Shown: piece by piece, positions 116 to 60,925 of the stretch
How the letters are laid out: each line of letters begins with the position of its first letter
Numbering within the stretch: the stretch's first letter is position 1
DNA from: Eledone cirrhosa
Taxonomy: Eukaryota
Assembly: GCA_964016885.1 (NCBI GenBank)
Contig: OZ024749.1
Span: forward strand, 992,001 to 1,056,000
Length of the DNA: 64,000 nt
Reading direction: 5' to 3'
The notes under the pieces: model-generated
Databases searched by the model: none
What the model saw: only the letters and a program-made list of their open reading frames with translations
Told to the model about the DNA's origin: nothing
Made by a program: the position numbers and the translations under genes

Positions 116-236
116 TTGTGCATATATATATATATATATGAAAAACAATGTTGTCTTTGAGATGCAGCAAGAGTGTATTTGAATACAACAACAACCACTA
201 CCAACGACCTGTGGTACCAGGGGTGAAAGTCAGTAC

Positions 237-271
237 CTGGCACATTGGTTTTGGTAGAGGTAATAAAATGA
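237..271 (-). other. Candidate 35-nt alternative exon (IILLPLPKPMCQ) with U12-like acceptor, sequestered in a long hairpin
   Basis: TTCCCTTAAT, 19 nt, AG; donor CAG|gtactg; open in phase 1; pairs with 361-420. Confidence 0.45.
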
Positions 272-1419
272 CTAAAGTAAAATAAAAATAATTAAGGGAA
301 AATTGATTAATGTACTTGGGCAGAAGAGATAATTGAGAAGACAAAATCTGTTTTAGTAATTTACCAAAACCAATGTGCCTGATACTAAACTTCACCCCCT
401 TGGTAGCATAGGTCATTGTTGTCGACACTAATACGACACATCCAGAAAGATCTCCATCACACATACAATCACAACTGATCAACTAAAACCACTTGCTGTA
501 GCCACACAATAAACATCCATTGTATATAACGTGGGATACCAGTGTGTAATCAGTACAAACAAATAATAAGTAAAATATATAGGGATGTTGGTATGTCCAT
601 ACACATTATTTTAAAAACCATAAACTTAGGAATTCTACAACTTTAGCCAACGAAATATGGGAACTGGAGGGAAAAGGAACTAGATATGAAATATCTTGGA
701 CAGTCCTGGGATTTGCTGACCAGTACAAACAAGATACGAGTATTTGCTATATTTGTACACTGGAATTGTACTATATAATTTCTGAAAAAAAAAAAATTAA
801 TAAATAATAGATTAGAATAGGTTTTCAATTGTAAACATAAACACTTTAAACCTTTCTCCTATTATAATCCTGACTAACATAGAATCTGATCCTACAAGCA
901 TACCCTTCCTCAATTCCATCCATTTATCACTGTATATATTAATGGCAGCAGAGAATACTTGGCACAGCCCAGACTTATCAATAGGAACATTAAGATGACA
1001 AAATGATTTATTACTACCGGCTTAAAGTGCCTGATAAAGAATTCTTAAAATCTCAGTGGAAGTGGCCCGTCACTGACCAATGGCATTAGAACTACCCTTT
1101 ATTCAACAAATCAACAGCTACTTCTGTTAACTATGTTAGTCCTGCCGCATGGGGAGGAAAAAAAATGATATAACTATCAATGCTAATGAGAGTTATTGTT
1201 GTTGAGAACTCTTTTATACATTTTCATATCTTTGTCTCTCAGTATAATTGTTAATATTTCAATACTTTTATGATTTTATATAACCCAGGTTTCTCCTTAG
1301 CAACATGCTGTCTCTCTATATATAAACATTTCCCTGTGTGAATAAAAACATTGTTAGACTTTGACAAGCTGATAAGTAAAACTGTTGAAGCAGAATATTG
1401 GAATTCTCGGAAAACATAC

Positions 1420-12074: not shown

Positions 12075-14082
12075 ACTCTCACTAAGAGAGAAGCTAGACG
12101 TCAGGTGTACTTAGCACGCAGGGAGGCAGAGAGTAGGAGGTTTGCCAATGTTCTGCGACGGGAAGATCAGAGGCGTGCGGTGTTCCACATTGCAAGGCAG
12201 TGTGTCAATGCAAATCAGGATGTTGTTGGTGATAAATGTGTCCGGGATGATGCCGGTGTACTTAGTGTCACGAATGACCAGAAAAAGGAGGCCTGGAAAT
12301 GTCATTATGAGAGACTGATGAATGTGGAGAACGAATGGGAGAGAGAGAAATTACCCTTGGTAGATCCGACAGAGGGACCAGCTATTGAGATTGACGAATA
12401 TAGGGTCCAAGAGGCGATTAGGGAAATGAAAAATGGTAAGGCGGCCGGACCATCGGGAATAGTTGCTGAGATGCTGAAGGCATCAGGGGACGTAGGCACT
12501 AAACTGGTTGCACGCATAATCAATCAGGCTATATATGGTGGTGTCATACCCAAAGACTGGTGCAGCAGTATTCTCATAAATTGCTACAAAGGTAAAGGGG
12601 ATGCTTTGGAGAGGAGCAATTATAGGGGTATAAAACTGATAGATCAGGTTATGAAAGTGGCAGAAAGGATTTTAGCACAACTAATTAGAGAAAGGGTCAA
12701 ACTAGATGAGATGCAGTTTGGTTTTGTGCCTGGGAAGAGAACAACAGATGCCCTCTTCTTGGTGAGACAAATGCAAGAGAGGTTCTTAGAGAAGAATAAG
12801 CCACTATACTTAGCCTTTGTTGACCTAGAGAAGGCCTTTGATAGGGTACCCCGATCTGTCATCTGGTGGTCCCTAAGGAAGCTGGGTGTTGAGGAATGGC
12901 TTGTAAGGACAGTGCAAACTTTGTACAGAGGTACTGTCAGTAAAGTCAGGGTAGGAATGGAGTTTAGTGAGGAATTCCAGATACAAGTAGGAGTACATCA
13001 GGGTTCGGTCCTCAGCCCGCTCTTGTTCATTATAGTCCTCCAAGCCATAACAGAGGAGTTTAAGACTGGCTGTCCATGGGAACTTCTCTATGCTGACGAT
13101 CTGGCTCTTATGGCAGAATCAGTAGAGGAGCTAGAGAATAAATTCCGGCTATGGAAACAGCAGTTGGAAGCAAGAGGACTGAGAGTAAATCTAGCTAAGA
13201 CAAAAGTGTTGATGAGTAGAAAAGAGGACAAAACCCTGATTCCATCAGGGAAATGGCCATGTTCGATATGCAGAAAAGGAACTGGCATAAATTCTATAAA
13301 ATGCACACAATGTAGGTCCTGGGTACACAAGAGATGTAGCGGGATAGCAGGCAAACTAACAGGTAGGGAGAAATATGTATGCAGTAGATGTACAGGGAAA
13401 TTAGACAGTAGAAGTCGCACTGATAGACACATTTTTCAAATGCGAGAGGGCGCTATAGAAGTGGTGGATAGCTTCCGGTACCTAGGAGATCAGATTAGCA
13501 TGGGAGGAGGGTGTTCCGAGGCCATAGTATCTAGAATAAGGACGGGTTGGAAGAAGTTTAGGGAGCTGCTTCCTCTGTTGACGAAGAAGGATTTCTCCCT
13601 GCGTACGAAAGGCCGGTTGTATGATGCCTGTGTGAGGAGCGCGATGCTGCATGGTAGTGAGACATGGGCAGCTACCGCAGAAGATATGCGACGGCTGGAG
13701 AGAAATGAGGCAAGCATGCTCCGTTGGATGTGCAGTGTAAATGTGCGTGAACGACCCAGCATAAATGTGTTGAGAGAGAAACTGTGTCTGAGAGGGATAG
13801 AATGTAGTGTACGGGAGAGGAGACTGAGGTGGTATGGACATGTGATGCGCATGGAGGATGACCGATGGGTGAAGAAGTGCCAGGAAATGCCAGTTGAAGG
13901 AAGACGTGGTAGAGGTAGACCACGAAAAACATGGGCGGAGGTGGTGAGAACAGACCTCAGATCATTGAAGCTCACGGTGGAGATGACGAGGGACCGTGAC
14001 GAGTGGAGAGATGCTGTGCTGAATAAGACCCGTCCCACCCTTGCAAGCAGGGAAAAGCGGACGTAAAATGATGATGATGATG

Positions 14083-20394: not shown

Positions 20395-20558
20395 ATATTA
20401 TGAATAAGAGAGCCGTTTTTATGTGTACATCTTTTTATTACAGAATTCTGTTCTATGTATTTTGAAAATGTCAGAGTGGTTGCATCTTTGAAATACGTAT
20501 AACAGGAATATGTAATAAAAAGATGTACACATAAAATCTGCTCTCTTATTCATAATAT
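20395..20558. repeat. Foldback palindrome, arms about 70 bp
   Basis: tatgaataagagag...atgtgtacatctttttattaca is the reverse complement of the right arm. Confidence 0.9.
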
Positions 20559-23753: not shown

Positions 23754-24911
23754 CCTCTGAAATACTTCACTCATCCATTGAACCTTTTAAAAAACTGAAT
23801 TTTTCTTCATACATTATACATTATGAGAATAATATCACTGACAGAGTTTCAGAAACATTTTTGGTTTTCCATTCCTTTCACCAGCCCCTCCCCCACCACA
23901 GTAAACTTAATGAAAAATTATACTTTGAAAATTAAAATTAAATGTAATAATTCCATTTTATAACTCTTACTATCCTGTAATGATTTAGAAGAAAATATAT
24001 AAAAAGAGGTTCATTCAAATGTTTATATTATCTTTACTAATGAATAGATCATTGTGAACATTTGCAGTAGACTAAACTAAAGACTTTACAAGCAACTACT
24101 AAATTATATTCCTTGCCCCTTATGTTTTCCAATGACCCTCCCCTACTTCACCTCCAGTACTGCTCTGGAGTCTCTCAATGTCTCCAACATGGTGGTAATG
24201 TCTACTTTCAGTAGTGAGTGGTTATGGTGTTGGACCCATCAACATAAGGTTCAACTCTCAGGCCAGGGTGGTGTGCTGTGTCATCTCACATTGCTCCAGT
24301 TACCACCAGTAGGAGTACTTGGGGATTAACCCTGCAAGGGACTGGCATCCTCTCCCTCACCCCTATTCATCTAGGGTGGAGAAGTAGGGTCTCTTGTACT
24401 CTCAGGTCATTTAACTCCACATAAAACCAAGAGAAACTCTGGCTTTAGTTTAACTTTTGTACAAGTATGGAAGAAATAATAGATTGATGATGATGATGAT
24501 GCATATTTAACTGTGGATCAACAATTCTAAATATTGAGCCTGTGTGACCTGTAATATGCGAGGAGGAGGAGAGGAGTTAACTATTGTGGATCCATTTGCA
24601 GCATGATGCAGAAATTGTTGAAAAAAAAACTAACAAAAAAATTAAAATGAAACCCATATAAAAGAAGAGTATAAACATGCAATGGAGAATGGAAGGATGC
24701 GCAGTGTTAAAAGTTTGGATATCACTGAATTGTTAAACCACAACAACAAAACACTATGGGGAGAATGGACACTATATATATATAATTAAATTTGTCACGA
24801 ATATACATAACATCTCAATGAAAAGAAATTGTTAAAAAGATCTCATTCAGAGAAGCAAATATTTAGAGAGAGTATCTGATGCAAAATTACTGAAGGGTAG
24901 ATCCCAGTAAA

Positions 24912-24967
24912 TTACTCTAAAGAACACTTCACATCTTTCCCTAGGGATATACTCACATTCAAGCAAC
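24912..24967 (-). other. Candidate exon in the loop of a 24-bp stem: 11-nt microexon (SCLN) or terminal exon ending CSLE*
   Basis: ttcctatgtttag|GTTGCTTGAAT|gtgagt; read-through gives SCLNVSISLGKDVKCSLE*; arms at 24882-24905 and 24981-25004. Confidence 0.4.
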
Positions 24968-25243
24968 CTAAACATAGGAAGGGATCTACCCTTCAGTGAT
25001 TTTGTATAAGATATTATATTATATACACACACAGAAGTATCGATATAAAATATAATAATATATAGCAATCAACCACTGATACAAAGGGAAGATGATAAAT
25101 ATAGAGAAAGAAATAAGCAGTTATATATTAGCACAGATAGAAAGCTAGAGAGAGAGAGAGCTAGAACATATGTTCCATTGTTAAAGGTTAAAATGAACAA
25201 CAATAATAATAAAGAAAGAAGCTTTGCTAAAATATTTAAAGCA

Positions 25244-25253
25244 GTAAGGATAC
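25244..25253 (-). promoter_or_regulatory. U12-type (minor spliceosome) 5' splice site GTATCCTTAC
   Basis: Matches the U12 donor consensus RTATCCTT at the point where Rab6 homology stops; poor match to the U2 consensus GTRAGT. Confidence 0.85.
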
Positions 25254-25317
25254 TTTCTCCTGGTTTCTTGGTTTCCTGCTCCATTCCAGGTAATGCAGCT
25301 GCCACTCGACGGAACAG
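25254..25317 (-). CDS. Rab6: Rab6 penultimate exon (64 bp), LFRRVAAALPGMEQETKKPGE+A, start of the hypervariable domain
   Basis: LFRRVAAALPGME is Rab6-diagnostic; tatttacag acceptor; ends in phase 1 at GTATCCTT. Confidence 0.94.
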
Positions 25318-25353: not shown

Positions 25354-26535
25354 TACAACTGTTAATTAAATATTGGTATATACCAACACAACTGTTAGTC
25401 AAATATTGGTATGTAATGTTGGTATATACCAACACAACTGTTAGTCAAATATTGGTATGTAATGTTGGTATATACCAACACAACTGTTAGTCAAATATTG
25501 GTATGTAATGTTGGTATATACCAACACAACTGTTAGTCAAATATTGGTATGTAATGTTGGTATATACCAACACAACTGTTAGTCAAATATTGGTATGTAA
25601 TGTTGGTATATACCAACACAACTGTTAGTCAAATATTGGTATGTAATGTTGGTATATACCAATACAACTGTTAGTCAAATATTGGTATGTAATGTTGGTA
25701 TATACCAACACAACTGTTAGTCAAATATTAGTATGTAATGTTGGTATATACCAACACAACTGTTAGTCAAATATTGGTATGTAATGTTGGTATATACCAA
25801 TACAACTGTTAGTCAAATATTGGTATGTAATGTTGGTATATACCAACACAACTGTTAGTCAAATATTAGTATGTAATGTTGGTATATACCAACACAACTG
25901 TTAGTCAAATATTGGTATGTAATGTTGGTATATACCAACACAACTGTTAGTCAAATATTGGTATGTAATGTTGGTATATACCAATACAACTGTTAGTCAA
26001 ATATTAGTATGTAATGTTGGTATATACCAACACAACTGTTAGTCAAATATTGGTATGTAATGTTGGTATATACCAACACAACTGTTAGTCAAATATTGGT
26101 ATGTAATGTTGGTATATACCAACACAACTGTTAGTCAAATATTGGTATGTAATGTTGGTATATACCAACACAACTGTTAGTCAAATATTGGTATGTAATG
26201 TTGGTATATACCAACACAACTGTTAGTCAAATATTGGTATGTAATGTTGGTATATACCAACACAACTGTTAGTCAAATATTGGTATGTAATGTTGGTATA
26301 TACCAACACAACTGTTAGTCAAATATTGGTATGTAATGTTGGTATATACCAACACAACTGTTAGTCAAATATTGGTATGTAATGTTGGTATATACCAACA
26401 CAACTGTTAGTCAAATATTGGTATGTAATGTTGGTATATACCAACACAACTGTTAGTCAAATATTGGTATGTAATGTTGGTATATACCAACACAACTGTT
26501 AGTCAAATATTAGTATGTAATGTTAGTATATAACA
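25354..26535. repeat. 46-bp minisatellite, about 25 near-identical copies, each with the palindrome ttggtatataccaa
   Basis: Unit ccaacacaactgttagtcaaatattggtatgtaatgttggtatata; period read from 25521 to 25567. Confidence 0.97.
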
Positions 26536-27631
26536 ACAATGAAACACATGTACATCTTGTGTACATCTGAAGTCCCTCTTCAGTGTCAGCCTGCCTGTGA
26601 CCCCACTCTACGTCTTGTGTACATCTGTTACATATGAAGTCCTTCTTCAGTGCCAGCCTGCCTGTGACCCCACTCTACCTCTTCTGAACCCATAATTTAC
26701 ATCTGAAACATTTTATAAAATTTTTACAAAAGCCACTTTATTTTGTAGTAAACAAAGTCCCTGCTTAGATGTCAGTAGAATCCCATTTTTTTTTCTGCTA
26801 ACTAAAACTTTTGTCTTTCTTAAGTTTACTTTTAACACTTTTGATGCCAACCCAGCCAAAACCACGTCTCATTCTATGAAACAAAACCCATTTTGAAAGT
26901 TTCCAACATAATTTTATATAAACACTAAATGTTAAATTACTATATAATGAAATAATAAATGATTTTAGTAAACCCCACAAAATACCTCATTAATTAATTG
27001 AAATATGGTGCATTACATAAGAGATACAGTAATGAAAGGGTTAAAGTCTCTTGATTCTAGGATTTACTTCCATATTGAGAATTTCTTGACTAATCCCATG
27101 CCAGGGTGGATGATGATGATGAGTGTAGCTGGGACTACCAATGAAATGTCAAAAGTGTTGTGATAGAAACATTGATGAAAAAGCAGCGATGGTGATTATG
27201 ATAATTAGTGGGGAGAATAAACTTCAATGATGTTGAGGAAAAAAAAACCCAAAAACTAACAAACAATGCATACAATTAAGTTTTTGAAATTCGATTCAAT
27301 ATATTAAAAATAAAAATTAACTTAAAAAACAAAACAACAGATTTTTAACAAAACTCAATTGTTGTAAACAGAAACAAATCTAACAACAATATTTTAAATA
27401 ATAATCATTATATATAATCTCCCTTCCTTTCATTGCTTAATTCTTCTTTTTTTTATTCTTTTCCTTTCTTTTTTTGTTTCTTTTAAATATTTTTAACTGT
27501 AAATATTGTATGCAAGGAAAATAAAAGATTGAATATACTAAAACAAAAAATCAAAAAGATCTCAGAGTTGTTAAAGGAAGAACTAAAAGTTGATAAAACA
27601 AGATTGATATGTTTCCAATAAAACTCCTTCA

Positions 27632-27730
<99 letters not shown>

Positions 27731-32911: not shown

Positions 32912-33052
<141 letters not shown>

Positions 33053-36000
33053 TTATACATATCATCATCATCATTATTATTGTAATCCCGCTGAGGTTAA
33101 CTTTGCATTTCATCCTTACAGGGTCGATAAAATAAAGTACCAGTAATACACTGGGATAATTGCTGGCCTTGTGCCAAAAGTAGAAACAATTATTATTGTG
33201 TGTTGACGTATTAATGAGCATAGCTGTGTGCCTTGGGTATGAACAGTGTAGTTTTTGGTGTTGACACTTCTATTGTATTGACAACTTTTCATAATATATG
33301 TAGTGCCTATTATTGATAAGGGCAGTGGATTGGCAGTATCGGTAAAGCATCAGACACCATGCTTCACGACACAGTTACGTTCTGGGTTCAAATCCTGCTG
33401 AGGTTAGCTTTGTCTTTCATCCTTACGGGGTCAATAAAATAAAGTACCAGTAATGCACTGAGGTTGATTTAATTGACTTTCCCCTCACCCCTAATTTATG
33501 GCCTTGTGCCTATAGTAGAAATCATTATTAAGGGATTTGGCAGTATCGGTAGAATGTCAGACACCCTTCACGGCATAGAATTATGTCCCTTTACGTTCTG
33601 GGTCGGAAAGGGACATAATTCTATGCTGGGGGTCAATAAAGTGGGTCAATTTAATCATCTTTTCCCCAAAATTGTTGGTCTTGTGCCTAAATCAGAAGCC
33701 ATTATTATTATTATTATTGATGGTTTACACAGTAAATATAATTATTGGATCTTCTATGACCTGTCGGGTCTCAGCAAAGACCTTACACAGACATTATTTT
33801 CATGAGTTTATGTGCAGTACCCAACACGGTAGTCTTTAGTAGCAGAACTTTTTATAATTTAAGATCTATTTTTTAAAGATGTAGCACTATTCTTCTTCTT
33901 CTTTGTTTTTTTTATTATTTTTTTTATTAAACTTACATACTTATGCACATCATTTATTAGAAACTCTAAGTAACATAAAGTTAACCCTTTTGTTATACAG
34001 TATACCCCTGACATTCGTGGTCCTGGTTATTCACGGAATTTTCCTTAGAACCTAACTAATAATTGTTTGTGGAAACCACCGCATATTTGTGAAATCGTAA
34101 ATATCTTCTGCAATTTTTTAATGGCTTTTTTAACACAAAATTATTAATAACAATATACTGTATTTGCCAGCCTATTGGACGACCCTTCACATCAGACTCT
34201 TTTTAAAAAAATTATATTTTAAGTTTTATTTTGACATTTATAGGCATTCTTATGGACCACATCCAATATTTATGGTTTTTCACTCTTTGTGGGTGTTCTA
34301 GGAATGAAACCACTGCAAATACTGGGGGACAACTGTATTTCTAATATTAGACAGTGAAAATAATGAAGGATTTGGGAGGATTTAATAATATAACTTTCTC
34401 ATTTGGAACATAACAGTTCTTACATAAAATTATAAACACTTTTGAATCAAAGTTGGTTAGCTTTTTATGGAAAGACAAGTAAAGACAACTACACACAAAC
34501 AGAATTGGTAGTCACTATTGATGTCAAATCAAGCTACAACTTAACTTTATTATTACAATAATATAATTAAGTAAAATGAAAATCACATGCATGTTTTTAA
34601 CGGCTATAATGAATCTACTATGATACATGCCTCCACAAAACTGTTGATACCTGATACCAAACTGACTGAAGGCCTTGTTAGTTTTACCGTTCAAAGCTGT
34701 TTATTTTGAAGTGTTTATAATTATCTAAACCTCTTCCATCATAGGTTTATCTAAGAACTTATGTTAAGTTATGTTCCAAACACCAGCTTAATAATAGTTT
34801 CTAATTTAGGCACATGGCCAACAATTTTTGGGGAGGGGAAACTCATTACATTGACATCAGTACTTAACTTGTATTTTATTTTATAAAATATGAAAAACAA
34901 AATTGATCTGAGCATGATTTGAACTCAGAATGTAGAATATCAAAACTAAATACTGCAAAACATTTTAATCAACACTACTGATACTGCAAATCCACCATCC
35001 TAAACCAGCTGAATAATGAGAAAGATAAGTATATTACTAAATCTTAGCAAATTCTTGATTATATTCAAAATAATTTGAAAATTATAGACAGTGCCTTTCA
35101 CTGGAAACTTGGTTATGAAAGGGTTAAACCGTTTGTTACTAAACCACCAGAAAACACCCAAGTTATACTATTCAAAGCTGTGTGTTTTAAAGTGTTTATA
35201 TTTATTTGAAACCCTTCCACTATAATTTCATCGAAGAACCTTTGTTAAGATATGCCATGAACACCAGCTGAATAATGGAGAAGTTAATTATATTACTAGA
35301 TCTTTACAAATTCTTGATTATTTTCAAAATGATTAGAAAATTATAGGAGCCCATTACAGTAGAAATTTGGTAACAAAAGATATTTTTGGATGTTTAGTGA
35401 AAGTTGGTTCATGAGTAAAACAATTTATTAGAAGTAAATTAGTGTTAAAACTGAAACAAAGATTTGGATGTAATAAACAATAATTGTTTCTACTTTTGGC
35501 ACAGGGCCAGCAATTATCCCAGTGTATTACTGGTACTTTATTTTATTGACCCCGTAAGGATGAAAGGCAAAGTTAACCTTGGCGGGATTTGAACTCAGAT
35601 CATAAAGGGACGTAACTCTATGCGTCAAAGCATGGCGTCCGACCCTCTACCGATACTGCCAATCCACCAAATAAATAATGATAATAAATAGTACTGATTT
35701 ATTGATTCTGAATAGAAAATAATTGCAACATTGTAATAGTAATTATTAAATAACATGAAAATGAATAAAAATATAAAGAAACATTTTCTCCAGTAGCCAT
35801 CTTCAGAAAATGAGACAGTTTCTATATATTGACATAACACAAATATAAGCCAATATATCAATGTAAAGGTTAAAATCTCTTACTATGTGCAGCATCATTT
35901 AATGTCTGATTTCCTAGCAAGAGTAGGATGGGTTGCCATAGATAGAATCAGTATTAAACTGGAGTTACTGACCTCTAGATGGGCTGAGGGGGTCCACATC

Positions 36001-36677: not shown

Positions 36678-36950
<273 letters not shown>

Positions 36951-37529
36951 TCAAGAAATGTTGGTTGATAAATAATCTACCAATTGTGGTGTAAACAGTT
37001 GTAAAGGACTCCAAGACTTGTGTTCCTTAAAGTATTATCAATAAGGTATCAAACAAAGTGTCAATATAATAAACAGTTTTAAGTGCACATCCTCTGTTTA
37101 TTATATAATCCTGTTATATGCATTTCAAAGAAACAGTCCTATATGAGTAAGACACAGTTACCTGACCCAACATACCTCAAATGGGACGACCCGTCTAACC
37201 CATGCTAGCATAGAAAATGGACGTTAAACGATGATGATGATGATATATATATAATATATAAGAGAAATGTTTGTTCATTGGTTGGTATCTTCATGCATCT
37301 GTTTAAAAAAAAATTTGATATAATTTCAAATGTAAATATCGCAGAAACTACAAAGTCTGGGACAATGAGACTGAGCAGTATGTTGAGCAACAATATAACA
37401 GTAATTCCCAATATATATTTGTAGTTTCTGGGATTTTTGCATCACAAATGATATCAATTCTTTTAAAACAACCTGTGTATATGTATATATATATACATAC
37501 ATATATATACACACATATATATACATGAA

Positions 37530-42690: not shown

Positions 42691-45217
42691 TATATATACC
42701 AAACTCGTCCCATGGACTGAGTGCTCTACGACTACGGATATTACCTTCCAGTGTTCTACCTCTCTCTCTCTCTCTATATATATATATACACACACACATA
42801 TATGATGGCTGCAAACTCTGTTAAGAGTACTGCAATCGCTTGTCAGATTATATAGTTTGGTGCACTTTTAGGCTACGGCCAGCCACACAAACCTGTAACA
42901 TATTCTGAACAAGCAATGCCTGCACTTTGAAGGTTTTTTAAAGTGGGGAATGTCCTTGCGCTCAACCAATCCCACTCTCTGAGCATCGAAACACTACTCA
43001 GGAGAACTGATCAACATCATCGGATGCTTCTGAAACTGCAGGTTTTCTTTTTCAGAGTTTCCCTCTCCTAGAAAGGTGTGACAACAACTGGGGGCCTTTC
43101 ACTCTCAGGTGGAGAAAAAAAAAAGAAAAGAAAAGTACTATTTGGATGACCATTGATTGTTGAGTTCCTCCACCCTTTGCATACATACATATATGGTGGC
43201 TGCCAACTCGTTTTCGAGTACGGCCACTACTTTATATCCATGTAGGAGAACCCCTACCGATGCGCTGAATGAGTGTGACTTAGTCCAGCCAACGACTTGA
43301 AAACTCTGGTACAAACACTACACTTGTGACAATTATTGACACATAGTTTTGGGCCCATGGTACCATGTGATGACAAGTGCAGAGAGATCTCCAGATATAA
43401 AGCAATGCCTGTGCCGTGAAGCTTTTATAGTGAGCAAAAGCACTGCACAAAGCCAGTCCCACTCTCTTAACCAAGATGATATTTACCAAAAAGAAGAACA
43501 AGTCAACATCATTGGATACCATCAGAGTTGCAGGTGTTATATCAGAGTTTTCCTTCTCCTAGAATTCTGTCTTGACAAAGGCTAAGGGGTTATCTCTCCC
43601 GGACATACATATATAGATGCATTAATACCTACATATATACATACATGCATATATACACATATACATATATTCACACACACACACCTGTGTTACATGTATA
43701 TGTAACTTTAATGCTTGATATAGTCCTTCTTTGGAGGATAGAATGGGAGTAAAAGAAGAAATACAAGACAAGAAAGACAAGACAAGAGTAAGAAAAAGGA
43801 AACAGAAAAAAATGTGGTTATTGCTCTCAGCTATGTAGGTTTAGCTGACCTTGTATGAGGTTGTATCCCATAAGAGGTTTCACACGTGTTTTAAAGATAG
43901 GGGCTCTAATGATATTTTGACTTTTCCTCTTACTGACCAATTGCTGGTTCATAGTAGAGGTTAACCCCACCCACTACCGGTTGCTGTTGATAATCGTTTT
44001 TGTCTTTAACAGAGTGGACTAGAGCAACATGAAATAAAGCATGTTGATCCAAGAATTGAACCAATGATTTTGTGTCCAATATCTTAACTATGCCACATAT
44101 CTTCATTGTGGTAGCCACACAGGCTTCTTCTTCATCCACTTATTCCTAGGCGGCTCATGGGGGCAGAGATCTCAAACACCCCCTCCAGTGAGTCCTGTTA
44201 GAAGCAACTGTCTCCAATTGATCCAGCTGGATCCCCAAGAAATAACCAACATAGCTCGTGAATATTATCCAACCATCTTGCTCGGGGTCGACCCTTGGGA
44301 TCTCTTGCTGGTTGGTTTTGCCCCTAAAATCTGTCCAGCAATTCTTTCCTTAGACAATCTAATCAAATGTTATATTATTATCAAATCTAATAATATTGGA
44401 GCTGTTATCTCTCAATTTGGGGAAGTAGCAGCTCTACCTGGAGAGTGACTGACATATACAGAGGTGAAACACCTGAGATATACCAACACTCACCCAGCAC
44501 AGCTGATGGAAAGGTGAACAACTGTGTGACTAATTCATATTCTATTCTCTATACATGTACATAAGATGTCTTATTACTGCAGAAATAAATAAATTATAGG
44601 CAGATAGATGATGGCAATATTGATACCAGCAGAAACCTCTGACACAGAAATGAAATACAATAAAACAATTTGAGGAGGTGGAATTATTGATAAAGCGAAA
44701 GTGTTAAAATGTACAATATTTGTGTAGCAGAGATATGACATTCAAGGTAAAATATCTTACAACTGTCATGTAATTTCTCTCTCAAAACACAGCAATCATT
44801 TATTTTCTGAAGGTATTTATTTACTGTCAGTGTTTATGGAGATTTCCAGAACATACTTATGTTGATCACTCACAGAAATAAAATATTTACTGAAGCTTAA
44901 AGGGGAGAAAAAGAAAAAGTAAAAGAAAAAATGTATCATAACCATCAACCAATATTCTATGTTCTATAGTGTCGGGTCACTCTTGAGTGCTACTGGTAAC
45001 ATGTAAACCAGTACAACCTGTCGCATGGTCGGGTCATCGGCGACTAAACTGGCAACACCACCAAGTTTACTTGGTGAGGAGGGTGGTTTTGGACACTCTG
45101 GAGGACAAAAAAACAAAACCTGACAAAGGGCGGAAGAACTGATAAGAGTCAACGGCCTTCCAAAAATGTGTAAATATGTATATACACATGTACATATGTA
45201 TATACGTGTGTATATGC

Positions 45218-48200
45218 CTGGGGTGTCAGGGAGGGGCATTTACCTCTGTAGGGGGGGGGGGACAAGCCATGCCTTTTTCAGGACAGCTTGTCCTGCATTG
45301 GGTCCCACCTGACACTCACCTCTCACCTGTGGCCCCCAGAAGCTGTAGCATGTGACAGCGGCCACACCCTGGTAAACCGCCTTGGCTGGCAGGCCGAACC
45401 AGGTTGAGGGTAGCCGGATCAGTCTTGAAACCCCCTGGCGAGTTAGATAAGGGATGCCTGCCCCTGCATGCGAAGACTGGACCCGGCAGAGTGAGTGGAG
45501 GAGGACAACATCGCCCCAACAGTCACGAAGGCGGCAACAGCAAGCGGTGTGGAGCGCTAGGGTACGGCAAGGCACTACAGATGTTGCGGCCATCCACTGC
45601 AGCCAAGGAAGTCCCTGGTCCTCCGTACCACCGGATTCTGGCTTCTGTGGCCGAGTGAGTGGGACCGTCACTGTGCACTGGCCCTCCCACTATAAACCTT
45701 TCCCGCACAAGTTTCTTCTTTAGCGTGCACTCCCAAAGCCCTGAGGTGATGGGCGAGAGGTGGAGATAACAGGTGGAGGTAACCTCTGGGAGTTGCCAGT
45801 CGCAAACCCACACGTGGGCGGCCTGGATGCGCAAGTCCTTCTCCTCCTGACCCTGGGATGACAGAGATCCGGCATTCCACCGGGCGACTGAGCAGCCCTT
45901 TTCAGGGGAGCACTGCTCACCCTCGCACAAGGGGAGGGGCGATAAAAGGAGCCCTAACCAAATGCTCGTCTCACACAAAGCCGGCCAGTCTACTGCGGCT
46001 GGTGATTTTACCCTTGCAAGCGGTCGAAACCAACATAATAGAAAGAAGAACTTGATTCTTGGCGCATGGAATGTGTGCACCCTCATGGATAGAGAAACCT
46101 CCTTGAGGCCAGAGAGAAGAACTGCCCTCATAGCAAGGGAATTAGCTCACTACCGGATCGACATAGCCGCCCTCAGCGAGGCTAGACTTGCCGAAGAAGG
46201 AATAATAGCAGAACCGAAAGGAGGCTACACCTTCTTCTGGAAGGGCAATGCAAAGGACGAGGACAAAATCCATGGGGTAGGCCTGGCCATCACGACTTCA
46301 CTCTGCAAGCAGCTACCAGACCTCCCAACACCTGTGAGTGAGCGGCTGATGAAGCTCCACTTACCCCTCAACCCATCTCGGCTTGTCACAGTCATCAGCA
46401 CGTACGCCCCCACTCTCACCAGCAGCGATGACACAAAGGACGCTTTCTACAGGGAACTCAACGCACTCATGAAGGGCGTCCCCCCAAGCGATAAACTCAT
46501 CCTACTGAGGGACTTCAACGCAAGAGTCGGGTCTGACAGCAGCAACTGGAGAGGCGTGTTGGGACCTCACGGCGCAGGGAAGCTGAACTCTAACGGCCTC
46601 ATACTGTTGAGTTTCTGCGCCGAGAACGTCCTCACCATCTCCAGCACACTGTTCCGCCAGGCAGACAAGTTCAAGAAGACATGGATACACCCCATATCCA
46701 AACAGGGGCATCTGATTGACTTTGCCATATGCCGCAGGAGGGACATCTGTGACGTCAGAATCACCAGGGCCATGCGTGGTGCAGAGTGTCGGACTGACCA
46801 TCGCCTTGTCAGGACCATCCTGTCACTGCACATCACCCCAACGCATCGCAAGACTCTGAAAGTCTGTAGGCAAGCTTTCGATGTCGCACAACTCAAGCAG
46901 CCAGAGCATTGTGATGCATTCGCGGAAGACCTAGACGGCCGGCTGACTGCCCATGGACCACTGACCAGACCCCCAACTCAGCAGTGGGACCAGTTCAGGT
47001 CACTGGTGGCAGAGTCAGCCAAGGTAACCATCGGAAGAGAGTCCACCAGGACTGGTTTGATGAAAACAATGAGCGTATCAGACAACTCCTGGATGAGAAG
47101 AGGAGGGATTTCATTGAGTGGCTGAATGACAGCTCCTCCACCTCGAAGCGCGACCGCTTCAAGCACCTCCAGAGGCAGACCCAAGCAGCGCTACGCAGAA
47201 TGCAGGACAAGTGGTGGGGAAAGAAGGCCGAAGAAGTCGAGAGATATGCTGACACAAAGAACTCCAAGATGTTCTTCAGCGCCATCGGGGACGTCTACGG
47301 ACGCCCCCAAGCCTGTCACCACACCGCTGCTGTCTGCTGACGGCTCGATCCTGCTGAAGGAGAAGTGCAGCATCAACTCGAGGTGGAGAGAGCACTTCAG
47401 CAACCTACTCAAGAGGCCCTCCACTGTCGGCCCTGCCGCCCTCGTCCAGGTCCCACAGAAGCCCGTAGTCGGCAGCCTCTCCCTCTCCCCCCACGTTGGA
47501 TGAAGTCACGAATGCAATCAACCAGACCAGCTCAGGAAAGGCCCTTGAGAAGGACAGGATTCCTGCCGAGATCTTCAAGTCGGCCGTTCCAGCTACCCTG
47601 GGGGCCTTCCACACCCTCCTCGTCAGCATATGGGAGGAAGAAGAGGTGCCCAAAGACTTCAGGGATGCCACAGTTGTCTCGCTTTTTAAGAACAGAGGCA
47701 GCAAAACTGACTGTGGCAACTATCGGGGCATTTCTCGCCTGTCCATCGTTGGAAGGTCCTGGCTCGGGTCATGCTCAACCGCCTCATCGCCAACATCTCG
47801 GAGGACAAGCTGCCTGAGGCCCAGTGCGGGTTCCACCCAAACCGCAGCACGATTGACATGATCTTCTCTGTACGCCAGGTGCAGGAGAAGTGTGTCGAGC
47901 AGAACGTGGACCTCTTTGCCGTCTTCATAGACTTGACGAAGGCCTTCGACACTGTCAGCAGGGAGGCCCTCTGGTCAATCCTGTCGAAGTTTGTGAACCT
48001 GATACAGCAATTCCATGACGACATGACCGAGCAGGTGCGCTCGGGCGGAGAAGCATCGGAGCCATTTGGAATCACCAATGGCGTCAAGCAAGGATGCGTG
48101 CTGGCTCTCGTCCTCTTCAACCTGTTCTTCACCTGCGTGCTCAATCATGCCATCAGGGACCTCGAGCACAGAGTGTATCTGCGATACAGACTGGACGGCT

Positions 48201-49215
48201 CCCTGTTTGACCTGCGGCGCCTGACGGCCAAGACAAGGACCACGCAGAGGATCGTCCTGGAGGCACTTTTTGCTGACGACTGCCCGCATGGCCCACAGAG
48301 TGTCTGACCTCCAAGTCATCGGTCTCACAATTAGCCTTGGCAAGACTGAGGTTCTGTTCCAGCCTGCACCTGCCTCCGTCGCCCACCCTCCTTCCATCTC
48401 CATCTCAGGCACCCAGTTAGAGACGGTGGATGACTTCAAGTACCTCGGTAGTGACATCAGCAGCGATGGAAGCCTCGACAAGGAGATAAACGTCAGAATC
48501 TGCAGGGCCAGTCAAGCCCTTGGCCGCCTGAGGACACGCGTCCTGAACCAGCATAACATCAGGCAGTCCACCAAGCTTAAGGTGTTCTCACCAGCCTCCT
48601 CTACGGATGCGAGACATGGACCCTGTACAGAAGGCACCTGAAGCAGCTGGAACGGTTCCACATGCGCAGCCTGTGGTCAATCATGAACATCAAATGGCAA
48701 GACAAGGTCTCCAACATCGAAGTTCTTGACATGGCTGAGACAACCAGTGTCGAAGCTGTGATACTGAAGAGCCGACTTCGATGGGTGGGACATGTCATCC
48801 GGATGGACGATCACAGGCTTCCGAAGCAACTGATGTATAGGGAACTCTGTTCGGAGAAACGAAAGCGAGGCAGGCCTCTCAAGAGGTTCAAGGACTGCAT
48901 GAAGTCCAGCATCAACAACACTGGAATCGCCCCAAAACAACTCGAGTCCCATGCTCAGGACAGGACTGAGTGTCGAGCCCTTACCAGACGCGCCAAAGAC
49001 TCTTTTGAAGAGAAAGACGGGCAGAGGTCACTGAGGCCCATGAAAGGGGAGCAAGGCATCAACAACTGACCCAAGCGACTCTGGCCTCTTCCTCTGCCCC
49101 CACTGTCCTCGGACTTGCAAGTCAAGGATCGGCTTTCACAGCCACCTTCGTGCCCGTGGCAGGCGGGAACTAAAGTAGAGAAGATGTCATCATTGTTTAC
49201 GATGGACAACCAAGA
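45218..49215 (+). mobile_element. Near-full-length GC-rich RTE/BovB-like LINE with 5' UTR, APE and RT, frameshifted
   Basis: GAWNV, IDIAALSE, DFNARVG, QCGF, FIDLTKAFD, GVKQG, FADD and RLRWVGHVIRM across ORFs 45962-49069. Confidence 0.95.
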
Positions 49216-49279
49216 TATATCATAAAGAAGACAGTTTTAAATGTACTTCCTCTATTATATAATCCTATTATATGTATTT

Positions 49280-50295
49280 CAACTACTGCAGCTTCCATCC
49301 ATTGGATTTCATGGCATTTCTTCACTCATCGGTCATAGTTCATGCACATCACAAGTCCATACCAATGTAGTCTTCTCTCCTACACACCACCTTGTATTCC
49401 CCTTAAACCCAGCTTCTCCCTCAGCTTTTCTCTCACATTTACACTGCACATCTAACGAAATGTGGTTGCTTCATTTCTATTCAGTCTATGCATGTCTTGC
49501 AGCATCGGGCACCGCTCAGTAGTTCTTTAAACTTCTTCCATTCTACCCTTATTCTAGCTATTATACACTCTGCACACTAATTAGGTCACCTAGATAGCAG
49601 AAGCTATCAACCACATCTATAGATCCTTCCTGTGACTTCCTCTTGATTTCTCCTGTGCATCTTCTACAAATAAAGTTCTCCCTTCCTGTTAGTCTACTAG
49701 TTATCCCACTACATCTTTTGTGTACTCAAGATTTACTACATTGTGTACATTGTATGGAGTTTATGCCCCCTCCTTTTCTACATATTGAGCAGGACCCCTT
49801 CCCTGAGGGTATAAGGGTCCTATCTTCTCTCCTACTCACTAGCACCTAGGCTTTTTGATTTCAAATTCAATTTCTATAATTGGAATTTATTTTCTACCTC
49901 TTTTTTGGTTTCAACTATAAGGACTATATCATCTACATAGAGAAGCTCCCATGAGCAGCCCATTTTAAACTCCTCTATTATGGCCTGAAGAACTTGGAAG
50001 AACTCCTATCTGTACCTTGAATTCCTTGCTAAACTCATTTCCTATTCTCTCTTTACTGACTGCTCCGCTGTACATAGTTTGCACTGCTCTCTCACAAGCC
50101 ATTCTTCTGCACCCAATTTCCTTAAGGATCATCAGATAATAGATCGAGGTAGTCTGTCAAAGGCCTTCTCTAGATCAACAAAAGCTAAATATAGTGGTTT
50201 ATTCTTGCCTAGGAACTTCTCTTGTAGTTGTCTCACTAAGAAGAGGGCATCTGTAGTAATTTTCCCAGGTATGAAACCAAACTGCATCTCATGAC
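49280..50295 (-). mobile_element. Degenerate RTE LINE fragment
   Basis: EMQFGF...AFVDLEKAFD in ORF 50132-50362. Confidence 0.85.
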
Positions 50296-56221: not shown

Positions 56222-57373
56222 TCAATCCTTGAGGTAATAACAAACAAATGCTCGATTTGTTTCTGTCGATCTCGTTATAAAGAATTTTTCATTACAAATT
56301 TTTTTTTGTACCCCGTGACTTTCGTTATAATGGAATTTCACTGTATATGAAATGCAATGTCCCAAGTGCCAAACTGTCTCTGCCTTTCCTTTAAACAACA
56401 TCGGTGGCATGGAGAAGGTAGATTGGCATAGATGGGCAACCCTTCCACAAAAAACACATTGCCTTTATATTACACTAGACCATCTGTGACCCATTGGGTC
56501 ATGTTCACTTAAAAATAATTTTTAAATAATTAAAATACACAGACATGTATATAATATAAAATGAAAATAGAAGGCCCATATATATGTGTGTGTGTGTATG
56601 TGTGTATATAAATGTGTGTGTGTATATATGTGTGTGTGTATATATATGTAGGTGTCTTTCAATCTATCTCAATTTATGAAGGGACCTGGAAAAACCATCT
56701 TGGGAACCCGTGAAACTTCTTTTATTCCATTTGTATTCCCATTTCAGGAGAAACTTGCACTGTTTTGGCTGTATTAACAGACAAGCACACAATCACAGAG
56801 TTTTAGTAGTATTTAGATATATTAATGTATATGTAATAAGATAGAAGTAGGAACTAACAAGACTGTACTTTAAATTGCTACAATAAGCATTTGCAGAGTC
56901 TTCTGCTATAATCAGTTGAATAGGAATTACAAAAACATATTTTCAATAGAAATCAATCAATATTAATTAAAAATAAATAAAGATATATATTAAAGCAGCC
57001 ATTAACTATAAAACCTTATGTCAATTAAAGATAGGAGATAAAAATTTAATGAAACTTTTGCTAATAGTGCTAAATGTAAATTTTCTAACACAAAAGTAAA
57101 AAGAAATTATATTAACACTTGTAACCAAGCGAATATATATGTGTGTGTGTATATATATGAATATATATATATACATATATGTATAAATGTGTGTGTGTGT
57201 GTGTGTATTTTTGAAATTGTTTTGCAAGATTTCTTATCTGAAAACGTGTGTTGAAACAGATATTGTTATACTTTGGGAGGGTCATGCTGCCAATAAAAAC
57301 ACATGCACATGTTGGTTTTCACTTCAATTTATTATAAATTTCCGGTTGGTTGGTTGCTTCGATAACCGGAATG

Positions 57374-57573
57374 TTGTTTATATATTGTCAAAGCTCTTTC
57401 GTCACACATTCTGTGACCTCATCAGTGATTGGGTTTTTGTTTTGTGTCTCTCCTTTGTTCTGTCCTACACCAACAAGATGGTGTAGGACAGAAAGGAGAT
57501 ACAAAAATAACAAATTAGTCAGTGAGGAGGTTACAGAAAGTGTAACGAAAGAGCTTTGACAATATATAAACAA
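57374..57573. repeat. Foldback palindrome, arms about 97 bp, 6-nt loop
   Basis: Centre tgtcctacacca-acaaga-tggtgtaggaca; outer arms ttgtttatatattgtcaaagctctttcgt. Confidence 0.93.
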
Positions 57574-57669
57574 GAGCCTCCCAAAGTATAACAATATATA
57601 TATATAATTATATATGTATGTGTGTATGTACATGTATGTGTATATATATATATGTATATTTATATATCT

Positions 57670-58378
57670 CAGTAAGCAAGAGATGGAATGAGACATACAG
57701 GAAGGTATGGAGAAGAAAGGTCTTGAAGCTAAAAGACCTTTCACTAAAATACAAATTTAGGAAAGCCCTTCAAGATGTGTATGATCAAAAAGAAGACGAT
57801 TTAGAGACGTATGACATAGATGATAACTCGAATTTATTACGTGACAACTTACTGCAGGCTACTGATGAAACTTGTGGCTGGAGTAGAGCTCCAACCAGAC
57901 AGAGAGTGACCTGGTGGTGGAACAGCACAGTAGATAAGGCCATTAGATACAAAAGACTAACATGGAAGGCTTGGTAAAAGGGTGGGAGTAGAGAAAGATA
58001 TATAGCCACTAAGAGAGAAGCTAGACGTCAGGTGTACTTAGCACGCACGGAGGCTGAGAGTAGGAGGTTTGCCAATGTTCTGCGACGGGAAGATCCGAGG
58101 TGTGCGTTGTTCCACATTGCAAATCAGGATGTTGTTGGAGATAAATGTGTCCAGAATGATGCCGGTGTACTTAGTGTCACGAATGATCAGAAAAAGGAGG
58201 CCTGGAAATGTCATTATGAGAGACTGATGAATGTGAAGAACGAATGGGAGAGACCTCAGATCGCTGAAGCTCACGGTGGAGATGACGAAGGACCGTGACA
58301 AGTGTAGAGATGCTGTGCTGAATAAGACACGTCCCACCCTTGCAAGCAGGGAAAAGCGGATGTAAAATGATGATGATG
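57670..58378 (+). mobile_element. RTE LINE copy with a large internal deletion that removes the RT
   Basis: Matches the 12075 element to ...gaatgggagaga, then jumps to cctcagatc near the 3' end; (GAT)n tail. Confidence 0.9.
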
Positions 58379-58384
58379 TATATA

Positions 58385-60235
58385 CATCATCATCATTTTA
58401 CATCCGCTTGCAAGGGTGAGACAGCACAGCATCTCTCCACATATCATGGTCCCTCGTGATCTCCTCTGAGCTTCAGCGATCTGAAGTTAGCTCTCACCAC
58501 CTCTGCCCATGTTTTTCATGGTCTTCCTCAACCGTGTCTTCCTACCACCGGGATTTCTTGGCACTTCTTCACGGTCATCTTCCATGCACATTACATGTCC
58601 ATACCAACGCAGTCTTCTCTCCCGCACACCACAACTTATCCCTCTCAGACATAGTTTCACTCTCAACTCGTCTATGCTTGGTCATTCACGCACATTGACA
58701 TTGCACATCCAACGGAGCATACTTGCTTCATTTCTCTCCAGCCGTCGCATATCCTCTGCAGTTACTGCCCATGTCTCACTACCATGTAGCATCGTGCATC
58801 TCACACAGGCATCATATAACTGGCCTTCTGTTCGCAGGGAGAAATTCTTCTTTGTTAACAGAGGAAGCAGCTCCCTAAACTTCTTCTATCTTGTCCTTAT
58901 TCTAGATACTATGACTTTGGAGCACCCTCCTCTCTTGTTAATCTGATCAGCTGGGTACCGGAAGCTATCAACCACCTCTATAGATCTTACCTGTATTTGA
59001 AAAATGTGTCTATCAACGCGACTTCTACTATCAAATTTCCCTGAACATCTACCACATATGAAGTTTTCCTTTCCTGTTAGTTTACCTGCTATCCCACTAC
59101 ATCTCTTGTGTACCCAGGATCTGCATTGTGTGCATTTTATAGAATTTATGCCAGCTCCTTTCCTACATATCGAACATGGCCATTTCCCTGATGGAATCAG
59201 AGTTTTGTCCTCTTTTCTACTCATCAACACTTTTGTCTTAGCTAGGTTCACTCTCAGTCCTCTTGCTTCCAACTGCTGTTTCCATAGCCAGAATTTATTC
59301 TCTAGCTCCTCTACTGATTCTGCTATAAGAACCAGATCGTCAGCATAGAGAAGTTCCCATGGACAGCCAGTCTTAAACTCCTCTGTTATGGCTTGGAGGG
59401 CTATAACGAACAAGAGCGGGCTGAGGACCGAACCTTGATGTACTCCTACTTGTATCTGGAATTCCTCACTAAACTCCATTCCTACCCTCACTTTACTGAC
59501 AGCACCTCTGTACAAAGCTTGCACTGTCCTCACACTTAGTTTCCTTAGGGACCACCAGATGACAGATTGGGGTACCCTATCAAAGGCCTTCTCTAGGTCA
59601 ACAAAAGCTAAGTATAGTGGCTTATTCTTCTCTAAGAACCTCTCTTTTAGTTGCCTCACTAAGACGAGGGCATTTGTTGTACTTTTCTCAGGCACAAAAC
59701 CAAACTGCATCTCATATAATTTGACCCTTTTTCTAATTAGTTGCGCTAATATTCTCTCTGCCACTTTCATAACCTGATCCATCAGTTTTAATTGCTCCTC
59801 TCCAGAGCATCCCCTTTACCTTTGTAGCAATTTATGAGAATTCTGCTGCACCAGTCTTTGGGTATGACACCACCATATATAGCCTGATTGATGATGCGTG
59901 CAACCAGTTTAGTGCCTACGTCCCCTGATGCCTTCAACATCTCAGCAACTATCCCCGATTGTCCAGCAGCCTTACCACTTTTCATTTCCTTAATTGCCTC
60001 TTGGACCCTATATTCATCAATCTCAATGGTTGGTCCTTCTGTCAGGTCTACTGGGAGTAGTTTCTCTCTCTCCCATTCATTCTCAACATTCATCAGTCTC
60101 TCATAATGACATTTCCAGGCCTCCTTTTTCTGAGCACCAGTTACATTAAGTGCACCAGCATCATTTCGGACACACTTATTTCCAACAACATCCTGGTTTA
60201 CACTGACACACTGCCTTGCAATGCAGAACACGTCT
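58385..60235 (-). mobile_element. 5'-truncated RTE LINE, tail-to-tail with the previous copy
   Basis: ORFs 58886-59782 and 59788-60342 are highly similar to ORF 11976-14066. Confidence 0.95.
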
Positions 60236-60442: not shown

Positions 60443-60496
60443 AGTTCTGTCCTCCAGGTACATTGTTTTGGATAGGAAATCTATTCCAATTGTGGC
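60443..60496 (-). CDS. Rab6: Rab6 internal exon (54 bp), ATIGIDFLSKTMYLEDRT, switch I/effector region
   Basis: Manual minus-strand translation matches Rab6. Flanked by tttccatttcag acceptor and gtaagt donor; phase 0-0. Confidence 0.96.
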
Positions 60497-60624: not shown

Positions 60625-60870
60625 TATAACACAGTAAAGAGAGAAAAACACACATATATTTATGTGTGTGTGATCAAATCATAAGGGATACGAAACCACC
60701 AAAGTGAAGAAGATACACTGAACTCAAAATGATAAATTAAGGTAAACGAACCGACTATGATAACTATCAACATCCAGACAGTTTTAAGGTAGAACTGTTT
60801 CGCAATTCAGTGAAGAGATATATTGGTCTGTTGTTGCTTTCTATCCCTTATTATTTGATCACACACAGAC

Positions 60871-60901
<31 letters not shown>

Positions 60902-60925
60902 GTGTTCTCTCTTTACTATGTTATA
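60625..60925. repeat. Foldback element with imperfect arms of about 75 bp
   Basis: tataacacagtaaagagag / ctctctttactatgttata and gtgtgtgatcaaat..taagggata / tatccctta..atttgatcacacac. Confidence 0.8.

Follow-up and report, generated by a model that had tools for sequence, protein, structure and literature searches.

Rab6 and the start of its last intron

The window, i.e. the whole stretch of 64,000 nt analysed here, is animal DNA that is AT-rich and abundant in tandem repeats, and the hairpin under study lies in the gene Rab6 on the minus strand. Judging from general genome features, the DNA is presumably cephalopod. An earlier note on this DNA had named this gene and strand, and the assignment was confirmed by five Rab6 exons (Table 1) with mutually consistent phases (0-0-1-2-0-1). 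As judged from sequence comparison, the same note was also right in regarding the splice site at 25253 as a true U12-type donor, since 22 of 51 related proteins holding ALPGM read through into the intron with S-I-L, the translation of the donor GTATCCTT, and since human and mouse RAB6A and RAB6B are minor-intron genes with GTATCCTTT donors (PMC6717393; here and below, statements taken from cited articles apply to the available parts of these articles). No credible true last exon of Rab6 was found in the window by motif search, U12-branch scan or tblastn of related tails. Due to this absence of the known last exons, the last Rab6 intron is longer than 25 kb and runs off the window. The minor intron of human and mouse RAB6A and RAB6B, with which it has the donor GTATCCTT in common, probably lies at the same position, on the basis of the human tail and of the donor's last exonic bases. 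Minor intron length differs, with 1.7-14 kb in mammalian RAB6A and RAB6B vs more than 25 kb here, and, as a further difference, relatives of the Rab6 found here appear to have several alternative last exons.

Table 1. Coordinates of Rab6 exons, splice-like motifs and parts of the hairpin in the window
Feature	Position	Strand	Remark
Rab6 exon	60443..60496	(-)	54 nt
Rab6 exon	36773..36878	(-)	106 nt
Rab6 exon	32913..33024	(-)	112 nt
Rab6 exon	27635..27728	(-)	94 nt; U2 donor at 27634
Rab6 exon	25254..25317	(-)	64 nt; last coding exon within the window
U12-type 5′ splice site of last Rab6 intron	25246..25253	(-)	GTATCCTT, phase 1
5′ arm of hairpin on Rab6 strand	24981..25015	(-)	Contains branch-point zone of cryptic acceptor
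U2-like cryptic acceptor	24968..24980	(-)	9/11 pyrimidines, TAG (AG 24969-24968)
11-nt pseudo-exon	24957..24967	(-)	Phase 0: stop at codon 3; phase 1: frameshifting
U2-type donor motif	24951..24956	(-)	GTGAGT, 1 of 17 GTRAGT on unmasked minus strand
U12-like donor motif	24943..24950	(-)	ATATCCCT, 1 of 8 on minus strand (4 on plus)
Stop codon closing ...CSLE* frame	24912..24914	(-)	TAA
Hairpin loop	24906..24980	(-)	75 nt; from pair table
3′ arm of hairpin	24871..24905	(-)	
Mini-palindrome across right arm/loop junction	24978..24994	(+)	6 bp

The named relatives matching the last Rab6 exon are molluscs, annelids and one nemertean. Among 29 protein tails without read-through, 23 fall into three classes, i.e. 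M-I/T-E-V (13), N-I/V-E-L (7) and T-D-I (3), and the remaining six comprise four from plant or fly and two odd predictions. Isoforms of Ostrea edulis (X5, X6, X8, X9), Mytilus edulis (X1, X2) and Saccostrea have their upstream exons in common and differ in their C-x-C-ended tails. Judging by these protein sequences, a single conserved U12 donor in lophotrochozoan Rab6 appears to be followed by at least three alternative last exons with C-x-C ends. Alternative Rab6 last exons behind a U12 donor were not seen in the literature searched, and the available part of PMC10639083 does not mention Rab6. The proteins concerned are P0056, which is the closest full-length protein, P0075 and P0082-P0095. 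Among them, P0090 appears to differ from P0085 by an acceptor variant of two residues, and P0083, P0085 and P0093 appear to have alternative N-termini.

Beyond the U12 donor at 25253 the minus strand holds a frame that is open for at least 52 codons and encodes hydrophobic residues; similar read-through ORFs in relatives are probably the product of T-rich intron starts. A 46-nt minisatellite (25369-26538; 25.4 copies, 98%) with an internal palindrome and units able to pair mutually begins about 50 nt upstream of the acceptor of the last Rab6 exon. Two inverted copies of a repeat of about 1.7 kb (12180-13864 and 58572-60231, 90% identity, 45 kb apart) are located in the U12 intron and in an upstream Rab6 intron, respectively. 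A GC-rich stretch (45-55%) at about 44000-50000 within a Rab6 intron is possibly a retroelement.

Geometry and local background of the hairpin

Within the U12-type last intron the hairpin begins 238-249 nt after the donor, in agreement with the distance of 250 nt after the donor given earlier (249 nt from 25253 to the 24-bp arm). In its core, 24889-24905 pairs with 24981-24997 in an unbroken run of 17 Watson-Crick pairs, and pairing continues out to 24882:25004, where 23 of 24 pairs are Watson-Crick with a single mismatch. Both the 24-bp stem with 17 perfect base pairs and the 75-nt loop described by the earlier note were thereby recovered from the pair table, while the full stem is longer and comprises 35 pairs, namely 31 Watson-Crick pairs, three that are G-U on the plus strand and A-C on the Rab6 strand, and one G.A/C.U. 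The folding z-scores are −7.98 for the plus and −5.69 for the minus strand, none of 200 shuffles being as stable on either strand, and when the window was shuffled 40 times by block-wise dinucleotide shuffling, no perfect arm exceeded 16 bp. In a 541-nt pre-mRNA context the predicted pair probabilities are 0.94-1.00 for the 17 perfect base pairs and 0.84-1.00 for the inner 24 positions of the 5′ arm, the A-C mismatch excepted. The predicted fold of the antisense strand (−57.2) is a little more stable than that of the Rab6 strand (−53.1), and the loop alone, with −11.7 kcal/mol vs a shuffled mean of −12.2 kcal/mol, has no extra structure over shuffles. Eight nucleotides are directly repeated at 24884 and 24909; together with the mini-palindrome at the right arm/loop junction, this repeat represents a junction microhomology that hints at a template-switch origin.

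For the survey of local inverted repeats the window was used with tandem repeats masked, and local repeats were accepted at E<0.01. The hairpin ranks 11th among the 15 inverted repeats that passed, of which five are single-copy within the window and ten have further copies in it. The arms pair far beyond chance and such repeats are common in the window, i.e. the hairpin exceeds shuffled sequence but not the real local background. Transition mismatches over the 15 inverted repeats are oriented 32 vs 28, and 9:7 over the single-copy five, therefore the A-C orientation is uninformative and gives no sign of selection on one strand. Of the earlier proposal that the mismatches are A-C on the Rab6 strand and G-U on the opposite one, the description stands for the three positions in the 35-pair stem, but the orientation carries no weight.

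Kinship among the five single-copy hairpins was not found, the matches between them being only 10 nt long (E≥0.25). Three of them lie near Rab6 exons, the distances being 129, 239 and 422 nt. The one at 60625-60925 (-) ends 129 nt before a Rab6 exon and has a U12-branch-like motif and an AG (60718) in its loop as well as a U12-like donor (60691) in its 3′ arm; the one at 37300-37470 (55 bp, 63-nt loop) precedes a Rab6 exon by 422 nt. A further single-copy hairpin at 202-418 (-) with 57 bp and a 105-nt loop contains a U12-branch-like motif (8/9) in the loop with an AG 20 nt on, and the phase-1 frame from it has no Cys-ended tail; this hairpin may be near the true last exons just outside the window. 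Long near-perfect palindromes at 57260-57597, 58253-58487, 20395-20558 and 33573-33626 would form dsRNA far stronger than the hairpin, and the latter three have related copies within the window.

By the predicted fold, the transcribed strand carries stable dsRNA, as an ADAR substrate does. The three A-C adenosines of the stem have U, U and A as 5′ neighbours. The modelled hairpin is a plausible ADAR substrate, in line with the ADAR context claimed earlier; just one mismatch lies within the 24 bp to which the claim referred. Across metazoans, repeats are the main targets of A-to-I editing, with 5′ U or A neighbours being favoured (PMC9989829), and editing in octopus is mostly intronic or in 3′UTRs (PMC9699675); taken together with the U, U and A neighbours, this suggests that the hairpin is probably edited passively by ADAR. 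It resembles the intronic inverted-repeat dsRNA that is the usual ADAR substrate (PMC9989829) in its short-range 35-bp intronic arms, being one of many at the locus, and in its A-C mismatches with 5′ U or A neighbours, and differs from it in being single-copy in the window and assigned to no annotated repeat family.

Splice-like motifs in the loop

The acceptor, the 11-nt unit, GTGAGT and the adjoining U12-like ATATCCCT that the earlier note had placed in the loop are all present on the minus strand (Table 1). Direct juxtaposition of a U2 donor and a U12-like one is presumably uncommon; ATATCCCT is one base off consensus and AT-type, whereas the main intron donor is GT-type. With U12 branch sites scored against a consensus from general knowledge, the match upstream of the loop AG is 6/9, which is the background median (905 of 1503 minus-strand YAGs score at least 6). 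The loop acceptor hence has no U12 branch site, and therefore the ...CSLE* frame, which does read so from the 64-nt exon to 24967, needs a hybrid junction of U12 donor and U2 acceptor. The only spliceosome-compatible partner of the cryptic acceptor is the U2 donor 27634, and the junction 27634 to 24967 is entered in phase 0 and meets a stop at the third codon. Since the 11- and 17-nt versions of the unit are 2 mod 3 in length and the 64-nt exon is 1 mod 3, neither keeps the reading frame of the known last exons. Whichever way the loop is spliced, the resulting Rab6 would be truncated or out of frame.

In the predicted 541-nt fold, the region 19-37 nt upstream of the AG contains nine adenosines, each of which is in the stem with an unpaired probability of at most 0.06. 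The predicted pre-mRNA is thus double-stranded over the branch zone of the cryptic acceptor, and the loop AG and most of GTGAGT fall within small helices. The stem is thus predicted to hide the exon-like unit and its branch zone and not to present an exon. The "complete exon" giving a CaaX tail that the earlier note had proposed did not withstand the analysis, given an acceptor without U12 branch site, broken frames and a buried branch zone.

The strict criteria for an acceptor-donor unit (GTRAGT, at least 9/11 pyrimidines) were set to the candidate and chosen after seeing it. Under these criteria four of 17 donors belong to such units; besides the candidate, these comprise one true exon and two further units. 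With random placement, a unit would fall within one of the four single-copy loops with P=0.01, or with P=0.04 when all seven loops are counted; less strict motifs, as in the real exons of Rab6, raise P to 0.13-0.77.

On the protein level, a 5-mer shared with the loop frames was found in none of 98 fetched proteins, and none of the 22 intron read-through ORFs of relatives matches the hairpin, just one of them extending to its distance (339 nt). A protein search with the 61-aa frame across the hairpin gave no candidate (lengths 33-107 covered), and two protein matches of a 73-aa frame were rejected because they are tandem-repeat proteins with 28-31% identity and summed scores; both frames are non-coding and therefore a weak proxy.

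Origin and possible roles of the hairpin

MITEs and fold-back DNA transposons are bounded by inverted repeats and have a non-coding interior. The hairpin may be taken for a copy of such a multi-copy element with its arms as the terminal inverted repeats, which are present, as are the fitting size of about 145 nt between inverted repeats, the arm layout and the non-coding interior, and further copies in the window are known for 10 of the 15 local inverted repeats. This origin is unlikely, however, as there is no second copy of the hairpin itself within the 64 kb (the exact matches are the two arms only, plus one chance match with three mismatches, and blastn against the window gave only a 24-nt AT-rich match with E=0.09), no target-site duplication of 2-10 nt at five boundary choices and no relative of its ORFs, and the arms fade gradually with no sharp ends. 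A Helentron/DINE-1-like element, which has a sub-terminal repeat with an adjacent partial palindrome, was considered as well. As for small RNAs, the 35-bp stem, in which position 8 is mismatched, has pri-miRNA-like geometry, and the hairpin has at least 16 bp between arms of 20-27 nt, as a microRNA does, with an upper stem of 22 positions (21 Watson-Crick and one G-U/A-C) that ends exactly at the loop. From either strand this stem would give a long-loop precursor, i.e. a 121-nt pre-miRNA with 22-nt arms. The single copy within the window, the many novel miRNA families in coleoids (PMC9699675) and the existence of an annelid precursor of 137 nt (PMC11701709) speak for this possibility, and the stem of about 35 bp with its 22-bp upper part is like that of a canonical pri-miRNA (PMC11701709). 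It is nevertheless very improbable: molluscan pre-miRNAs in MirGeneDB 3.0 are shorter than 80 nt, longer ones being reported from arthropods, flatworms, rotifers and an annelid (PMC11701709), in agreement with the earlier remark that the loop is too large for a typical pre-miRNA, the common though non-obligatory basal UG, apical UGUG and CNNC are absent at the predicted cut sites on either strand, the predicted 5p arm begins with A, and the whole window has no Rfam match at gathering score. The arm motif had no match in the literature searched, nor in the searched part of the supplementary tables and PDF of PMC9699675, which contains no list of miRNA sequences. At E≤10, a single Rfam match around the hairpin (14.9 bits vs a gathering score of 75) was rejected as chance. 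The earlier note had also seen no C/D boxes, and indeed box C (RTGATGA within one mismatch) is absent on both strands and CTGA occurs in the arms only; a C/D-box snoRNA was rejected on these grounds and by the negative Rfam result, and an H/ACA snoRNA due to the one dominant stem, the unstructured loop and the negative Rfam result.

Among the splicing roles, the loop unit may act as a stem-gated poison exon that is mutually exclusive with the 64-nt exon, being entered by 27634 to 24967 and left via the U2 or the U12-like donor; the product would be a truncated Rab6 without prenylation site, the stem would repress by burying the branch point, and could be opened by ADAR editing or if folding is slow. 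In this possibility, which we rate as less probable than a transposon copy, the paired branch zone of the predicted fold and the strict coincidence of P=0.01-0.04 find an explanation, although the thresholds were set after seeing the candidate and P is 0.13-0.77 with loose ones. By the 50-nt rule of NMD, the stop, which lies just 2-8 nt before the last junction, should let the transcript escape decay, and ATATCCCT is off consensus and AT-type in a GT-type main intron. A U2-type acceptor together with a U12-like donor within a U12 intron is the layout of Tmem87b 11/11a and Mapk9 7/7a, but the Tmem87b exons are both 72 nt long and keep the frame, whereas the candidate, with 11 or 17 nt vs 64 nt and a stop at codon 3, lacks the length, frame and homology of its partner exon (PMC6717393). 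Complementary regions flanking a stop-bearing exon-like unit are also found at BRD2 exon 3b and BRD3 exon 5b, where they control poison-exon inclusion; those exons are conserved and experimentally shown, whereas the unit here is a candidate of only 11 nt, has a stop that would escape NMD and lies in a U12-type host intron (PMC10789245). That the stem is a selected, editing-sensitive switch between major and minor spliceosome in a mollusc-like genome, concealing the branch point that belongs to a stop-bearing exon of 11/17 nt with back-to-back major and minor donors, is quite doubtful and again a little less probable. Still further down is the idea that the hairpin is a docking site for competing RNA pairings that select alternative Rab6 last exons downstream in the intron; its donor-proximal position and the three or more last-exon classes after the U12 donor in relatives would fit, but no distal partner was found in the 24.7 kb of the intron within the window (blastn E≥0.14, AT-rich only; arm duplexes there reach −24.5 at best), the local arm-arm duplex (−41.4 kcal/mol vs −22.9 to −26.7 kcal/mol for the best distal partners) would outcompete the distal ones, and the best loop duplex of −42.6 was equalled by 4 of 19 shuffles, all of which makes it exceedingly unlikely. 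Scarcely credible at all is the version of the earlier note, i.e. an alternative terminal exon with a CaaX-like ...CSLE tail on Rab6. Its open frame does end in Cys-Ser-Leu-Glu-stop and the gene family does switch last exons, but, besides the median U12 branch match, 6 of 78 control frames also have Cys at −4 and 18 of 78 have one among their last five residues, and CaaX transferases disfavour Glu at X. Past the TAA, the nearest poly(A) signal (AATAAA) is 1728 nt downstream at a mean spacing of 627, although long UTRs exist. With its lone Cys at −4 the tail is not a Rab6-type C-x-C prenylation tail; a ...CSLE-like tail was found in 0 of the 29 spliced tails of relatives, in which full-length tails end in C-x-C or C-x-C-G, and a usable CaaX tail is thus unsupported.

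The preferred explanation, which we regard as fairly probable, is a neutral intronic inverted repeat in Rab6 that was made by a DNA-level event and has a chance pseudo-exon in its loop. The locally single-copy inverted repeat would stem from a template switch, from inverted duplication at the locus or from a fold-back element that has since decayed; its stem would form co-transcriptionally in the Rab6 intron, would be edited at low level by ADAR as other intronic dsRNA, and would be removed along with the intron without a selected function, the loop motifs being an unused pseudo-exon that the stem would keep silent by happenstance. Counted for this neutral origin are the 11th rank of 15 with five single-copy repeats, the mismatch splits (32:28 and 9:7), the better antisense fold, the junction microhomologies, the unstructured loop, the lack of a U12 branch site, the broken frames, the paired branch zone, the poly(A) signal 1728 nt off, the negative Rfam search and loop frames without protein trace. 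Counted against it are the strict criteria, under which only two other background donor units exist (P=0.01-0.04, with 0.13-0.77 under looser ones), the presumably rare adjacency of U2 and U12-like donors, the pri-miRNA-like stem geometry and the three single-copy hairpins 129-422 nt from Rab6 exons.

As a neutral repeat the hairpin would be of little significance, representing one further intronic inverted repeat. If it were a switch, opening of the stem, e.g. by ADAR editing, would allow the major spliceosome to bypass the U12 donor and to give truncated Rab6, and would thereby tune the output of an intron whose splicing also selects one of several prenylated tails; a true poison exon would link RNA structure, A-to-I editing and the choice between major and minor spliceosome in a core trafficking GTPase. 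The side finding of alternative tails deserves more attention than the hairpin. If the alternative last exons are true, Rab6 would lend itself as a natural model in which to study how the minor spliceosome makes an alternative 3′ choice and how Rab hypervariable tails are swapped.
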